Notes: a model not told the origin generated them from the letters alone. 16,351 nt of DNA from a virus (IMGVR_UViG_3300042922_000430:1-16351); one strand, 5' to 3'; positions 1 to 16,351 are shown, counted from the first letter of the stretch. Program-made: numbers and translations.

Positions 1-127
1 TCCTCGAGCGGCTCCGCGCCGGCGACCCCGAGATGGGCGGCGTCGACTTCGCGGTGGCGGACGACACCCCGTGGGGACTCGTCGAGAACGAGGACACGGC
101 GATCGAGCTGCTCAAGAGCGTGCACCC
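1..127 (+). repeat. Terminal overlap, copy A (identical to 16225..16351)
   Basis: Base-by-base comparison shows tcctcgagcggctccgcgcc...ctcaagagcgtgcaccc at both ends. It lies inside the terminase reading frame, so it is coding sequence seen twice. 127 is a commonly used maximal k-mer in de Bruijn assemblers, so this is most simply a circularisation overlap. Confidence 0.95.
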
Positions 128-12361: not shown

Positions 12362-13216
12362 CTAGACCAGCGCGGAGCCGCCCCGAGATGCCGCCTCGAC
12401 GATCGACCGCTTGCGATCGTCGGGCAGCTTCACGTAGGTGCGCACCATCGCGAGCGACGCCCACCCCATCAGGTCCGCGACCACGTACGGGTCACCGCTC
12501 GAGGCGATCCAGAACCGCGTGGCGGCGCGATGCCGCAGCTTGTGGATCGTCCACGGGCCATCGAGCAGCCGGTTCACGCGGGTGCCGAGCCAACGAGCCG
12601 AGACGTGCCCGCCCTCGTCGCCGGGGAACAGGTGGCCGCGCCCCTGACGCTTCACCCGATCGAGGAGGGCGATCGCCATCGCACGAGTGAGCGGCACCTC
12701 GCGCGTCTTGTTGCCCTTGCCGTGCACGATCAGGTCGTGCCCGAGCAACGTCTCTACGATGTCGTCCGAGTGGATACACGCGATCTCCGCACGCCGTAGA
12801 CCGTGCTCGGCGGCGAGGTCGATCCATAGCCGCTCGTCGTCGTCGGCCTGCGCGAGCGCGGCGAGGTAGACCCGATCGGGCACCGGCCGCGGGTTCGGCT
12901 TACCCGGCTTGACTTTGTCGATCGGTTCGGTCGGATCGGCCGCCATGCGTGCCGTCTTGACCGCCCATCCGTAGAACGCCCTATACGTCGTCAGGCGCGA
13001 GCGGCGCGTCTCCTGCGCCCAATCGTGCTGGGCCATGAAGCCGGCGATGTCGTCGGTCGTGAGCTGCCACGGCCCGTAGGGGACACGGGAGGCGATGTGC
13101 TGGAGGTGCTGTCTTCGGGTGTAGGTGGACGTGCGAGCAACCCCGCTCGCGGTCTGTGCTGTGATGAACGCCGCGATCGACTCCGACCACGCCGCCCCGG
13201 GTAGGTGCGTGTGCAT
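12362..13216 (-). CDS. int: Tyrosine integrase (284 aa from ATG 13216; the ORF is open to a GTG at 13312)
   Basis: Catalytic signature in order: GLRRAEI (Arg), HGKGNKTREVPL (Lys), HKLRHRAATRF (His-x-x-Arg), LMGWASLAM (Trp/His position), VRTYV (Tyr). ATG 13216 has AGGA 7 nt upstream. The 32 codons upstream of it have GC3 of only ~60 percent, so they are probably non-coding. Confidence 0.9.
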   Translation of the reverse strand: MHTHLPGAAWSESIAAFITAQTASGVARTSTYTRRQHLQHIASRVPYGPWQLTTDDIAGFMAQHDWAQETRRSRLTTYRAFYGWAVKTARMAADPTEPIDKVKPGKPNPRPVPDRVYLAALAQADDDERLWIDLAAEHGLRRAEIACIHSDDIVETLLGHDLIVHGKGNKTREVPLTRAMAIALLDRVKRQGRGHLFPGDEGGHVSARWLGTRVNRLLDGPWTIHKLRHRAATRFWIASSGDPYVVADLMGWASLAMVRTYVKLPDDRKRSIVEAASRGGSALV

Positions 13217-13319
13217 GAACTGATCCTGTGGTGCTCGCGAGTCGCTCACGTTTCGCGGGTGAGTCGCGGGCATCGATCCCAGTAGCCGCACCGATGTGAA
13301 ACCAGTAGTCACCCAGGGC

Positions 13320-13661
13320 TCAGACGCTCAGAACGTCGCTTAGACTCGCCCAGGCAGTTAAGCGCTCGCCCGTCCAGAAGTTGGGGGCGACTACAGACCA
13401 GAAGGTTAGGGGTTCGAGTCCCTTCGGGCGCACCACACCAGGCAGGCCGTCGATCAACTGATCGGCGGCCTGTTTCGTTTCACGCGCCCACGCGATGAAC
13501 TGCGACACGGACGGCTCGGAAAGTCCGCGCTCCCAGTTCGAGATCGTCGTGCGTCCCACCCCGAGCGCTGCCGCCATCTGCGCCTGATCCAGCCCCGCCA
13601 GCACACGAGCATCGCGGAGGCGCGCGGCCACCGTCGTCGACTCGACATTCATCATGGTCAT
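13320..13661 (-). CDS. XRE/cI-type HTH repressor (113 aa from ATG 13661; the track ORF starts at a TTG at 13691); its 3' end reads antisense through a tRNA-derived attP core
   Basis: HTH: LAGLDQAQMAAALGVGRTTISNWERGLSEPS. Divergent from the early operon and adjacent to int. The C-terminal ...VVRPKGLEPLTFWSVV... is the antisense translation of a tRNA T-arm/acceptor. TAATCT (complement of 13669-13674) lies 7 nt upstream of ATG 13661, which suggests a leaderless transcript. Confidence 0.8.
   Translation of the reverse strand: MTMMNVESTTVAARLRDARVLAGLDQAQMAAALGVGRTTISNWERGLSEPSVSQFIAWARETKQAADQLIDGLPGVVRPKGLEPLTFWSVVAPNFWTGERLTAWASLSDVLSV
13391..13435 (+). other. tRNA 3'-half fragment = putative attP common core (anticodon-loop remnant to CCA end; Arg(ACG)-like by recollection)
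   Basis: Plus strand: CTACAGA (anticodon-loop remnant), CCAGA, AGGTT, then T-arm AGGGG-TTCGAGT-CCCTT. The acceptor 3' strand CGGGCGC (13425-31) follows, then discriminator A and CCA (13433-35). The 5' strands needed for the anticodon and D arms are absent, so this is a fragment and not a gene. It lies within ~100-180 bp of the int start (13216 or 13312). Confidence 0.65.
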
Positions 13662-13789
13662 GGGACTCAGATTAGCGCGCGGCGTGCTCAATAATCACGA
13701 CACGCCGTCCGAAATGCGGACGTGTGCAACGCCTGTGCAGAAACCTGTGGATCGTGCTCAAAAAAGTGAGCACGGACGAGGACTGAGAC
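13662..13789. promoter_or_regulatory. Divergent genetic-switch region between repressor and early operon
   Basis: 128-bp gap, which is non-coding if Rep starts at ATG 13661. It is dense in dyad symmetries: CGGCGTG (13680-86)/CACGCCG (13701-07); cgtccg (13706-11)/cggacg (13717-22); and a 22-bp palindrome at 13753-74. The motif CGTGCTCA occurs at 13683-90 and 13753-60, and inverted at 13767-74. A TAATCT -10 candidate serves rep. Confidence 0.55.
13753..13774. promoter_or_regulatory. Candidate operator: perfect 8-bp inverted repeat CGTGCTCA-aaaaag-TGAGCACG
   Basis: Seen directly in the sequence. It ends at 13774, at the 5' edge of the RBS (ggacgaggac, 13774-83) of the first early gene (ATG 13790). 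A third copy of the half-site sits next to the rep -10 candidate. Confidence 0.5.
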
Positions 13790-14395
13790 ATGGCTACCAA
13801 CCCGAACGGCGGTGTGCTCCACCGCGAGCGTATGCGCTTCGAGCGCGACTTCACGCAGCTGCCCAACCAGTGGCTCCGCGACCGGCGTCTAAGCCGAGCT
13901 GCGCGGGGCCTGCTCGCCGAACTGATGACCCACGAGGCCGGCTATGAACTGTCGATCGCGGGCCTGTCAGCAGTCGGCCTCGAGGGCCGCGACGCAATGC
14001 GGACGATGGTCACCGAACTCGAGACAGCCGGCTACCTGACGCGCCACCGAGAGCGCCGCGGAGGACGCCTCGGAGGGACCATCTGGAAGCTCCAGGATCC
14101 GTTCGATATCCCGGCACCTCAGCCGATGATTCCGGGCCTCGAGCGCACCGCCACCTACGCCGGGAAATCCAACGTAGGTTCGGCCAACGTAGGTTCGGCC
14201 TACGTTGGCTCCACCGCGTCGGGAAATCCGACGACTATAGAAGACCAAGTTAAGAAGAGAAATACTCACTACCCAGCGCAACCACAGAGGACCGCTGCGC
14301 GACCTGTGGATAACTCGCGCCGTGCGGCGTGCGGACACCAGCTCGTCGACGACCGTCACTGCGAGTTCGGATGCAAGCTCGAGGCGTCCGCATGA
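13790..14395 (+). CDS. Winged-helix DNA-binding protein, replication-initiator/replisome-organiser-like (201 aa)
   Basis: Good RBS. The N-terminal pattern FTQLPNQWLRDRRLSRAARGLLAELMTHEAGYELSIAGLS...MVTELETAGYLTRHRERRGGRLGGTIWKL is typical of wHTH phage/plasmid initiator N-domains. A central repeat/low-complexity linker is followed by a C-terminal Cys/His knot (CGHQLVDDRHCEFGC). It is the only replication-type gene present. Confidence 0.6.
   Translation: MATNPNGGVLHRERMRFERDFTQLPNQWLRDRRLSRAARGLLAELMTHEAGYELSIAGLSAVGLEGRDAMRTMVTELETAGYLTRHRERRGGRLGGTIWKLQDPFDIPAPQPMIPGLERTATYAGKSNVGSANVGSAYVGSTASGNPTTIEDQVKKRNTHYPAQPQRTAARPVDNSRRAACGHQLVDDRHCEFGCKLEASA
14161..14273 (+). repeat. Iteron-like repeat cluster plus AT-rich block inside the initiator-like gene (candidate origin of replication)
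   Basis: A 15-bp unit aacgtaggttcggcc occurs twice in tandem (14171-85, 14186-200) with a degenerate third copy (14201-15). An 11-bp perfect inverted repeat is present: gccaacgtagg (14183-93)/cctacgttggc (14199-209). The 10-bp direct repeat cgggaaatcc flanks the cluster (14161-70, 14220-29). Next comes actatagaagaccaagttaagaagagaaatactcact (14234-70), at ~32 percent GC in a genome that is otherwise strongly GC-rich. Confidence 0.45.
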
Positions 14396-14700
14396 GCGTG
14401 TCGCTGGACTGCCGCGACGGGCAGCACTTCGCCTGCGCTATCAGCGGCGGATGCTGCTGCGAGTGCCACGGACTGCACGTCCCCTACGCCGCCGACGAGC
14501 CACTCATCATCGAGGAGCCGATGCCCGTCCGGGCGTACGTCGTGCTGATCGTCGTGACGGCGATCGTCCTCACGCTCGGCGTCACGTTCATCGGCACGCT
14601 CGCGCTCACTGACGCAGCGACGGTGCTGCTCGTGGCGCTGTGGGGCTGGACGCTCGGATGCGTCGTGACGTCGATCGCTCAGCGGGTGAGTCAGCGATGA
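14392..14700 (+). CDS. Membrane protein with Cys-rich N-terminal cluster and two TM helices (102 aa)
   Basis: ATGA overlap with the upstream stop. Cys cluster: CRDGQHFACAISGGCCCECHGLH. TM helices: AYVVLIVVTAIVLTLGVTFIGTLAL and VLLVALWGWTLGCVVTSIA. High GC3. Confidence 0.65.
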   Translation: MSVSLDCRDGQHFACAISGGCCCECHGLHVPYAADEPLIIEEPMPVRAYVVLIVVTAIVLTLGVTFIGTLALTDAATVLLVALWGWTLGCVVTSIAQRVSQR

Positions 14701-14885
14701 CGTGGGAGGCGATGGTCAGCGACGAGCGCCGGCGCGTCCCCGTCCGTTGGCGCGTCGAGGAGTCCGCAGTGCTCGCCGGACATTGGGTCGTCTACGCGGG
14801 CCAGGAGTTCCACGTGCTGCCGACCTGGCGGGAGGCGTACGACTACGCCTACGCCCGCGCGCGACTGCGAGGGCTCGAGCAGTGA
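14697..14885 (+). CDS. Hypothetical protein (62 aa)
   Basis: ATGA overlap upstream and GTGA overlap downstream. Coding bias is good. No recognisable motif. Confidence 0.55.
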   Translation: MTWEAMVSDERRRVPVRWRVEESAVLAGHWVVYAGQEFHVLPTWREAYDYAYARARLRGLEQ

Positions 14886-15166
14886 GCCAGCATCACCGCT
14901 CGAGCAAGCACACGTCGGCGACCCACAAGCTCCGCCCCGAGATCGAGGCTCGGCTGCCGATGCCGTGCGTCGAGTGCGGTCGGCCCGTGCACAAGGAGCA
15001 GAAGTGGCACGTCGCCCACGTCACCCCCGCATCCAAGGGCGGACGCACGACTCGAGCGAACACGGGCGCAGCTCACGCCGGATGCAACCTCCGAGCCGGC
15101 GGGCGCATGGGCGCAGCCGTGACCAACCGACACCGCAACGCGAAGAAGGGCATCCGGCCATGGTGA
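14882..15166 (+). CDS. HNH endonuclease (94 aa, GTG start), packaging-associated type
   Basis: Motif: PCVECGRPVHKEQKWHVAHVTPASKGGRTTRANTGAAHAGCNLRAG (C-x2-C ... H ... N ... H-x2-C-N). It lies just upstream of the terminase, as in cos-type HNH-dependent packaging modules. Confidence 0.85.
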   Translation: MSQHHRSSKHTSATHKLRPEIEARLPMPCVECGRPVHKEQKWHVAHVTPASKGGRTTRANTGAAHAGCNLRAGGRMGAAVTNRHRNAKKGIRPW

Positions 15167-15345
15167 ACAACGAGCACGACGACACCTCCGACACCGACGA
15201 GTGGATGCACGGATCGCTCGTCAATGTCGCATTGACTCCGAACGAATGGGCGCACGTCGTCGCGGCGCTCGGCCTCGCGCCGGTAGCTGACTGGCAGCGC
15301 ATCGCGCAGCTCATCACTCGCGCAGTGATGGAGACGACAAAGTGA
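15160..15345 (+). CDS. Hypothetical acidic protein (61 aa) in the small-terminase position
   Basis: ATG 15160 overlaps the HNH stop. High GC3. The stop overlaps the GTG at 15342. No motif recognised, so the TerS role is speculation from position only. Confidence 0.5.
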   Translation: MVNNEHDDTSDTDEWMHGSLVNVALTPNEWAHVVAALGLAPVADWQRIAQLITRAVMETTK

Positions 15346-16351
15346 GCGTAATCGAGGCCAAAGAGGCTCAATCTTTTGAGAATCCGATCGAACCTCCGCC
15401 TGTAGGCAGCGCCGGATTTTCTCACACGACCTGGGAAAAAGTGCGATCGAGCGGGATCGCACCGCGATGGTGCGGACCCCTCGACGACACGGAGGAATTG
15501 CGCCGAGAGTTCCTCGAGGGTGCTGCGCTGATGGGCTACGCGCTCGTCGATCTCGACGACCTCGAGGCGGTCGCCGCATTGCGCGCGCTCGAGCCGGCGT
15601 TCGAGCCGTTGCAGCCGCAGCAGCTCCTCATGGCCGACGCACTGAACGCCGGCCTCCAGGTCAACGCGATCGAGGTTCCCCGCCGCGCGAGCAAGACGAC
15701 CACGATCCTCTGCTGGGCTCTCGGCCGCTGTGTGTCGCGGAAGCGGTACAAGGTCACGTACTCCGCACAGGACGGCATGTCGGGCGTCGCCAACCTCGAC
15801 GAGTGGGCGCGCGACGGGCTCGACCGGATGAACCCCGCGGAGGACGACGGCGTGCCGCCGTGGCTCCGCAACGTCAAGCGCAAGCCCAAAGCACAGCAGC
15901 GCGCCGAGTCACTGTTCGGTGCCGACGTCGTGCCGTTCGAGGAGCCCGAGAAGTCCGGCCGCGGTTTCATCATCTACCGATCGGTCACGAAGGCCGGCGT
16001 GTACTTCGACAATGGCTCCGCGTTCTACGTCGTGCGACCCGACGCGAAAGCGTTCCGCGGGAAGGCCGCAGACGTGTCGTGGATCGACGAGTCGCAGGAA
16101 GTCGAGCCCACCGAAGGCGCGGCGCTGCTCGCCGGCATCCTGCCGCTCCAGGACACCCGACCCGAGGGCATGACGATCGTCTCCGGAACGGCCGGCGAAG
16201 TTCGCGCCGGCCCGCTCTGGATGTTCCTCGAGCGGCTCCGCGCCGGCGACCCCGAGATGGGCGGCGTCGACTTCGCGGTGGCGGACGACACCCCGTGGGG
16301 ACTCGTCGAGAACGAGGACACGGCGATCGAGCTGCTCAAGAGCGTGCACCC
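15342..16351 (+). CDS. terL: Terminase large subunit, 5' portion (ATPase domain); open to the window end and continues at base 1 (16225-16351 duplicates 1-127)
   Basis: The open frame (positions congruent to 0 mod 3) has no stop from 15342 to 16351. It is absent from the ORF track because it has no stop in the window. Motifs: Walker A-like EVPRRASKTT (15678-15701), Walker B-like VSWIDESQE (16074-16100), coupling motif VSGTAG. The joined product is 571 aa from GTG 15342, or 508 aa from ATG 15531 (GAGGG 10 nt upstream). The first ~35 codons after 15342 have GC3 near 50 percent, so the later start is plausible. Confidence 0.85.
   Translation, partial: MSVIEAKEAQSFENPIEPPPVGSAGFSHTTWEKVRSSGIAPRWCGPLDDTEELRREFLEGAALMGYALVDLDDLEAVAALRALEPAFEPLQPQQLLMADALNAGLQVNAIEVPRRASKTTTILCWALGRCVSRKRYKVTYSAQDGMSGVANLDEWARDGLDRMNPAEDDGVPPWLRNVKRKPKAQQRAESLFGADVVPFEEPEKSGRGFIIYRSVTKAGVYFDNGSAFYVVRPDAKAFRGKAADVSWIDESQEVEPTEGAALLAGILPLQDTRPEGMTIVSGTAGEVRAGPLWMFLERLRAGDPEMGGVDFAVADDTPWGLVENEDTAIELLKSVH
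16225..16351 (+). repeat. Terminal overlap, copy B (identical to 1..127)
   Basis: See copy A. Identity was checked base by base. Confidence 0.95.

Follow-up and report, generated by a model that had tools for sequence, protein, structure and literature searches.

The DNA considered here is a viral contig of 16,351 nt (IMGVR_UViG_3300042922_000430:1-16351), referred to throughout as the window, and it probably carries a theta-type replication origin at about 14154-14314, inside the linker-coding part of the phage's own initiator gene. The gene in question, an open reading frame (ORF) at 13790-14395, encodes an initiator-like protein of 201 aa. Downstream of the part that encodes an N-terminal DNA-binding domain come an array of repeated cores (iterons), an AT-rich block and a DnaA-box-type 9-mer, all within 161 bp. 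From this architecture we infer that the protein binds the repeats, that the AT-rich block melts, that host DnaA is used and that the region acts as an origin.

The features on which this reading is built are the following:

13790-14395, plus strand: initiator-like protein, 201 aa, divergent from the repressor gene
13814-14092 (about residues 9-101): N-terminal winged helix-turn-helix, modelled confidently by AlphaFold2
14154-14237: iteron array, CC-N6-GG cores in a 15-bp register, in the linker-coding part
14154: core CCTACGCCGG
14169 and 14184: core CCAACGTAGG
14199: core CCTACGTTGG, an inverted copy
14214: core CCGCGTCGG
14228: core CCGACGACTA, a half unit
14233-14273: AT-rich block, candidate DNA-unwinding element
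14273-14287: G+C-rich block CCAGCGCAACCACAG, between the AT-rich block and the DnaA-box-like site
14303-14314, plus strand: CCTGTGGATAAC, candidate host DnaA box, holding TGTGGATAA at 14305-14313

The iteron array

The cores start at 14154, 14169, 14184, 14199 and 14214, with a further half unit at 14228, making six in all. They are separated by 5-nt spacers, which read GAAAT, TTCGG, TTCGG, CTCCA and GAAAT here and are A/T-rich across the family.

An earlier reading of this DNA, made from the sequence alone (the sequence-only reading), had described a 15-bp tandem repeat overlapped by an inverted repeat and bracketed by a 10-bp direct repeat, and each of these is indeed present. The tandem unit, CCAACGTAGGTTCGG, is repeated 2.5 times at 14169-14205, and with a Tandem Repeats Finder (TRF) score of 67 it ranks first among the 16 arrays in the window. 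The inverted repeat, GCCAACGTAGG / CCTACGTTGGC, is perfect over 11 nt (14183-14193 and 14199-14209). The direct repeat, CGGGAAATCC, lies at 14161 and 14220 and extends to a 17-mer with 88% identity (14158-14174 and 14217-14233). It forms the A-tract centre of two near-palindromic units, CGCCGGGAAATCCAACG (CGCCGG-GAAAT-CCAACG) at 14158-14174 and CGTCGGGAAATCCGACG (CGTCGG-GAAAT-CCGACG) at 14217-14233. The array is larger than was first described, with its six cores, and the DnaA-box-like 9-mer downstream of it had gone unnoticed.

With at most one mismatch allowed, CCAACGTAGG has 4 matches in the window against 0.59 expected, a number reached by 2 of 200 shuffles; three copies are exact and fall within 40 bp. 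The same scan found no second cluster of cores elsewhere in the window.

The AT-rich block and the G+C-rich block

The AT-rich stretch that the sequence-only reading had placed downstream of the repeats proved to hold both the lowest-GC 36-mer of the window and the weakest 40-nt duplex of the genome. The 36-mer, with a GC content of 0.31, begins at about 14235. The duplex, at 14233-14273, has a free energy (dG) of -47.5 kcal/mol, more than 5 standard deviations (sd) below the genome mean (-65.5, sd 3.4), and the next weakest 40-nt duplex stands at -53.3. Within the block, the motif ATAGAAGACCAA, conserved in the family, occupies 14237-14248, and a second AGAAGA is found 14 bp downstream, at 14253-14258. 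A DnaA-trio element in the block was considered and is not claimed, since by eye only two adjacent triplets match and the block lies about 30 bp from the box.

An A/T-rich block follows the array on its 3′ side in all lineages, carrying a nearly invariant ATAGAAGACCAA or, in distant members, CTAAGAAGACCATC. This block contains the lowest-GC 36-mer of the whole locus in 17 of 18 close relatives. The G+C-rich block CCAGCGCAACCACAG that comes next is kept with at most two substitutions in 13 of the 18 members of the clade, and it may be a second protein-binding site or a structurally constrained spacer.

Conservation in homologous loci

Homologous loci, 46 of them distinct, were drawn from genomes, viral contigs and metagenomes, and the DNA after the winged-helix domain was compared among them. 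Each locus was scored for the presence, within 240 nt, of two or more CC-N6-GG cores with a spacing of exactly 15 bp, and 871 windows from the same loci served as controls. Two or more in-register cores were found at 39 of the 46 loci, as against 1.4% of the controls, and three or more at 25 of the 46, as against 0% of the controls. The spacing of the cores is exactly 15 bp across genera. The sequence-only reading had raised the chance that homologues would show this segment to be a freely variable linker; this was examined and is not so, as the repeats are kept at those 39 loci.

When the whole locus was considered (mean length 9.7 kb), its top self-match at a lag of 15 fell in the linker in 30 of 44 cases, and its lowest-GC 36-mer was no more than 260 nt from the start of the linker in 32 of 44. 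For the inner bases, identity is 0.76 among cores of one locus and 0.49 among cores of different loci, and none of 2000 permutations reaches the observed value. The cores are thus alike within a genome and differ between lineages (CCAACGTAGG here; CCTACGTAGG, CCGACGTCGG, CCGACGACGG and CCGACACCGG in relatives), as one would expect if iterons and their cognate initiator evolve together. Covariation between core type and the residues of the recognition helix and wing, looked for by eye in the family alignment, was not consistent enough.

Two phages that have been cultured and sequenced share the arrangement. Gene 21 of Curtobacterium phage Barebow (locus L057, 3455-3575) contains four exact copies of CCGTCCACGG and one variant at 15-bp spacing, together with an AT block, and gene 84 of Arthrobacter phage Wheelbite (locus L058, 3300-3430) contains two copies of CCGGCGCCGG in an in-gene array, again with an AT block. 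Their products are labelled no more precisely than "hypothetical protein" or "HTH DNA binding domain protein", and no origin is annotated in either record.

In one metagenome contig (Ga0233424_10082650; locus L028, around 1090-1110), an in-frame TAA codon lies inside the AT-rich block (…KNTIST*DHLEE…). It could mark a pseudogene, a sequencing error, or a DNA element that was kept while the frame was lost.

Selection on the DNA

The sequence-only reading had proposed that the repeats, being translated as a low-complexity peptide, are under selection as DNA. The translation of the ORF does include a simple repeat peptide, …GKSNVGSANVGSAYVGSTASGNPTTIEDQVKK…, and AlphaFold2, run on the family alignment, predicts residues 122-201 to be disordered, with a predicted local distance difference test (pLDDT) score below 50. 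Since the score falls below 50 from residue 122 onwards, the part of the protein that the repeats and the AT block code for is a linker predicted to be disordered.

The same stretches of nucleotides are translated in one frame in some relatives and in another in others. In most close relatives the cores are read in frame 1, as xNVG, xDVG or xYVG, and in four others (L052, L011, L017 and L009) they are read in frame 0, as PTSx. Likewise, CCAGCGCAACCACAG is read as PAQPQ or PTQPQ in 9 relatives; in 4 (L014, L015, L045 and L054) the frame is shifted by one and the block gives PSATTE or TSGTTE.

Codon choice within the AT block departs strongly from that of the N-terminal domains:

Ile, ATA/ATC: 22/3 in the AT block, 1/31 in the N-domains
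Glu, GAA/GAG: 18/2 in the AT block, 20/112 in the N-domains
Gln, CAA/CAG: 14/0 in the AT block, 14/58 in the N-domains
A/T-ending codons: 60% in the AT block, 16% in the N-domains

These rare A/T-ending codons are fixed despite a GC content at third codon positions (GC3) of 0.75-0.92. Because the same blocks are read in different frames and otherwise avoided codons are fixed in them, the pattern indicates that the nucleotide sequence, and not the encoded peptide, is under selection. The in-register cores kept at 39 of the 46 loci agree with this, as does the greater likeness of cores inside one genome than across genomes, and the proposal of the sequence-only reading is thereby supported.

The DnaA-box-like site

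The 9-mer TGTGGATAA at 14305-14313 is the exact reverse complement of TTATCCACA, which has been described as the "perfect" DnaA box (PMC4285127). With up to one mismatch allowed, the window has no other match to the box. The 9-mer is unchanged in almost every close relative, and it is probably part of the same element as the iterons and the AT block. Across 44 loci, 28 exact copies of the box were found within the 900 bp around the linker and none in the 387 kb elsewhere. In the clade to which the window belongs, all copies are on the plus strand, and in most members two copies flank the iterons and the AT block.

The box encodes P-V-D-N here and always (P/A)-V-D-N in relatives. Its rare codons are fixed, with CCT in 17 of 18 (1 of 54 in the N-domain) and GAT in 16 of 18 (10 of 95 in the N-domain). 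A variant, TGTGGACAA, found in L048 and L054, equals TTGTCCACA, the high-affinity box of Mycobacterium and Streptomyces (PMC4285127). This variant gives only modest support, because the change is also synonymous and GC-ward. Taken together, the case for host DnaA acting at this box appears to be evenly poised.

The initiator-like protein

The N-terminal domain of the protein belongs to a large family: 689 representatives of 50%-identity clusters match it at E values of up to 1e-10. In PHROGs, the protein matches the DNA-binding family phrog_1456 (1.4e-16) and, more weakly, the replication-initiation families 270, 4707, 428 and 345, the last of which, "replication initiation O-like", is a weak match at 4.2e-4. 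Pfam was searched with E up to 0.1 for the window protein and up to 0.01 for 33 relatives. Nothing significant was found for the window protein, which has a weak match to MarR_2. HTH_36 (PF13730) is matched by 12 of the 33 relatives, with a best E of 2.5e-9, and the window protein does not match it at E ≤ 0.01. RepA_N and Phage_rep_O are matched neither by the window protein nor by any of the 33 relatives. A sequence search of the Protein Data Bank with the family profile gave nothing significant (best E 0.37).

In the structural comparison with Foldseek, the top match is DnaB, a primosome protein related to DnaD (5wtn; E 1.6e-3, query TM-score (TMq) 0.33), and among the best matches is also domain 1 of RctB, the initiator of Vibrio chromosome II (5ube; E 8e-3, target TM-score (TMt) 0.60). 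Regulators of the MarR and ArsR types rank behind both. The RepA structures of pSK41 and pTZ2162 are absent among the 50 structural matches listed.

The protein ends in a short tail rich in Cys and His (nt 14338-14395), with the pattern C-G-H...H-C-x3-C. In relatives the tail reads RCPGNW...H...C-x-H-C, and one Cys is invariant across an alignment of 19 sequences. The tail may form a small zinc-binding module for a host partner; the model is not confident in this part.

Genome context

The first 127 nt of the window (1-127) are identical to its last 127 nt (16225-16351), which implies that the assembly is circular and that its true length is about 16,224 bp. It is a high-GC contig (GC 0.68), and its gene content, by PHROGs and Pfam, is that of a small temperate tailed phage. 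Apart from the gene for the initiator-like protein, its main features are:

12362-13312, minus strand: tyrosine integrase
13320-13691, minus strand: Xre/cI-like repressor (HTH_3, 1e-12; phrog_2328, 1.4e-14)
13692-13789: divergent control region, between the repressor gene and the gene for the initiator-like protein
14702-15166: HNH endonuclease
15342 to the end, continuing at 1-833: terminase large subunit, which appears to span the contig junction

The structural and lysis genes encode the major head, major tail, tail fibre and minor tail proteins and a peptidase/endolysin; the remaining ORFs are small and have no assigned family. Genes for a helicase, helicase loader, primase or polymerase were not found by PHROGs or Pfam anywhere in the circular genome, and the ORFs 3′ of the gene for the initiator-like protein (14329/14392-14700 and others) match no family and include no P-like loader. 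The sequence-only reading had singled out this protein as the only one of replication type, which holds as far as PHROGs and Pfam tell. The HNH gene lies just 5′ of the terminase region, as is typical where packaging is of the cos type and requires an HNH partner.

The window sequence is present in a soil metagenome, in the assembled contigs of only three runs, and its relatives are Microbacterium prophages and similar contigs of 16-18 kb. A megablast search of 13300-14700 against 50,697 phage records gave no real relative, the only match being one of 36 nt in a mycobacteriophage repressor gene.

The divergent control region contains an operator-like perfect 7-nt inverted repeat, GTGCTCA-N6-TGAGCAC, at 13754-13773, just 5′ of the start of the gene for the initiator-like protein. 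Operator-like direct copies, CGTGCTCAATAA and CGTGCTCAAAAA, also occur here (13683-13694 and 13753-13773). The sequence ACCTGTGGAT at 13743-13752 agrees at all 10 nt with the start of the DnaA-box-like site (14302-14311), and when scored as a DnaA box it agrees at 7 of 9 positions (TGTGGATCG). It was considered as a part of the origin and rejected, as its position is not kept in relatives. Scans of 13300-14800 for consensus sigma-70 promoters and for terminators found nothing, so the early promoter is placed from the gene arrangement only. Judged by that arrangement, early rightward transcription would begin in 13692-13789 and cross the candidate origin.

A model for initiation

In the proposed model, lifting of the repressor would allow the early rightward transcript to be made and the 201-aa protein to be produced from it. 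The N-terminal winged-helix domain would then bind the array of 15-bp-spaced cores, probably as dimers whose half-sites converge on the A/T-rich spacers. The resulting nucleoprotein complex would destabilise the adjoining AT-rich block, the weakest duplex of the genome, where the host replisome would be recruited, probably with the aid of host DnaA on the TTATCCACA-type box. The candidate box lies 30 bp beyond the AT block, and recruitment may also go through the Cys/His tail at the C-terminus. The replisome would be that of the host, as the phage has no gene of its own for a helicase, loader, primase or polymerase.

A broader version of this model is put forward only tentatively, as it seems to us somewhat doubtful. 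It holds that the gene of about 600 bp could be a self-contained minimal replicon in which host DnaA boxes replace the loader, and that the same grammar could be used by hundreds of actinobacterial phages and prophages. This grammar may consist of CC-N6-GG every 15 bp, with inner bases specific to the lineage, followed by a AGAAGACC-type unwinding motif. The figure of hundreds is suggested by the 689 cluster representatives that match the N-domain at E ≤ 1e-10. That the unwinding motif is kept across genera while the cores diverge would imply a conserved partner for it, such as single-stranded DNA binding by the initiator, or DnaA.

Several observations weigh against the presence of an origin here. 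With a spacing of 15 bp, neighbouring cores lie on opposite sides of the helix, an uncommon arrangement for iterons. The structural matches to replication proteins are marginal, with E values of about 1e-3, and by sequence the protein belongs to none of Phage_rep_O, RepA_N (PF06970) and Rep_3. Only one box, the downstream copy, is kept in the window and in its two closest relatives, and more distant relatives have none; in these box-less relatives the protein is mostly longer, and its gene belongs to a Gam/AAA_24/SNF2 early module in a larger phage. The high-affinity box known from Actinobacteria is TTGTCCACA (PMC4285127), which differs from TTATCCACA. Finally, GC skew carries no origin signal, with a raw minimum at 14609 and a detrended minimum at 12500. 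The cumulative skew is uninformative for mapping an origin, however, because it is monotonic and dominated by a single coding strand.

Alternative explanations

The repeats might instead be intragenic operators of a winged-helix regulator (an autoregulator, a switch protein or an activator of late genes), with the AT block serving as a bend or a promoter and no role in replication. The weak Pfam match to MarR_2 fits such a protein, as do its structural neighbours, which beyond the top five are mostly transcriptional regulators, and the gene directly adjoins the repressor in the lysis-lysogeny switch region. However, operators would leave unexplained why the weakest duplex and DnaA-box-type 9-mers are conserved beside the sites, and why distant homologues are placed in Gam/AAA_24/SNF2 early modules for DNA metabolism. 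The phage would also be left without a recognisable origin or initiator. We therefore consider this explanation unlikely.

Still less probable is a centromere-like or other DNA-handling site, for partition, packaging (pac/cos) or attachment (attP), bound by winged-helix or other phage proteins. Iterated sites are also typical of centromeres, and TubR, a winged-helix centromere-binding protein, is a weak structural match (rank 11, E 0.43). Against this, the phage integrates by means of its tyrosine integrase (12362-13312) and has no partition ATPase or GTPase. A cos or pac site would be expected at the HNH-terminase junction, at about 15166-15342, and attP beside the integrase gene rather than in the gene for the initiator-like protein. 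None of these roles needs a conserved meltable block or DnaA boxes.

That the region is merely a low-complexity, slippage-prone linker, whose repeats and AT-richness are by-products of peptide selection or neutrality, is hardly credible: it is predicted to be disordered and does encode a simple repeat peptide, but the nucleotide blocks are kept while frame and peptide change, the rare A/T-ending codons and the box codons CCT and GAT are fixed, and the 15-bp spacing of the cores is exact across genera.

Comparison with known origins

An origin inside the gene of its own initiator, as proposed here, has a close parallel in phage lambda and its kin, the lambdoid and Stx phages, where ori lies in the middle of gene O and an AT-rich tract comes after iterons that have internal dyad symmetry (PMC7466680). 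In lambda and in the window alike, the known or candidate origin is within the gene, the iterons encode the linker that follows an N-terminal DNA-binding domain, and the gene sits in the early rightward operon beside the repressor switch, so that transcription crosses the origin. The likeness to lambda drawn by the sequence-only reading thus stands for the iterons and the AT block inside the gene. It does not extend to the protein, which is not a member of Pfam Phage_rep_O and has a short Cys/His tail where lambda O has its P-binding domain, or to its neighbour, as no gene for a P-like helicase loader follows. The window has 10-bp cores at 15-bp spacing whereas the lambda iterons are 19 bp long, and its element, unlike that of lambda, is flanked by a conserved DnaA-box-type 9-mer.

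In the RepA_N initiators of plasmids, phages and satellites, such as those of pAD1, pSK41 and pTZ2162 and the RepA of the Vibrio cholerae PLE, a DnaD-like winged helix binds semi-palindromic iterons that converge on an A-tract (PMC7145576). The units CGTCGG-GAAAT-CCGACG and CGCCGG-GAAAT-CCAACG of the window are likewise semi-palindromic on an A-tract and resemble RepA_N iterons. In contrast to the RepA_N initiators, the window protein has no match to PF06970, and the hosts here are Actinobacteria rather than Firmicutes. Weaver et al. in 2009 are said to have described the origin of Gram-positive RepA_N plasmids as lying centrally in repA, and the C-terminal domain as host-specific.

In Bacillus phage SPP1, oriL is located within gene 38, and the G38P protein binds direct repeats there, beside an AT-rich unwinding element (PMC6316719). 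SPP1 and the window thus both have repeats in the gene of an origin-binding or presumed origin-binding protein, with an AT-rich element adjoining. However, SPP1 has its own loader (gp39), its own DnaB-type helicase (gp40) and a second origin, none of which is found in the window.

The origins of P1, F, RK2 and pSC101 have DnaA boxes beside their iterons, the position and orientation of which matter, and DnaA assists in the delivery of the helicase (PMC4980987). The combination of iterons, an AT-rich unwinding element with short repeated motifs and DnaA boxes is shared with these plasmids. Their origins, though, lie outside the rep gene and their Rep proteins have a WH1-WH2 fold (Rep_3), and neither feature is present in the window. 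The HTH_36 proteins and the annotated homologues Barebow gp21 and Wheelbite gp84 have a homologous N-terminal domain, and their genes show the same layout of iterons and AT block.

Implications

This kind of element is well known, and the protein family is not, by sequence, a member of the characterised families of initiators. To our knowledge, the replication origins of actinobacteriophages are almost entirely unmapped. Literature searches found no description of this in-gene arrangement in actinobacteriophages, and the single pertinent paper among the literature searched offers no more than a guess that a mycobacteriophage origin lies in or near repA (PMC7157519).

From the pattern described here follows a rule by which the probable origin can be located by sequence across a large family, made up of small temperate phages and prophages of Microbacteriaceae and their relatives. 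If the gene is truly a one-gene replicon, it would be a compact module from which to build shuttle vectors for Microbacterium, Curtobacterium and Arthrobacter. It also suggests that the low-complexity linkers of DNA-binding proteins can be the translated shadow of DNA that acts in cis.

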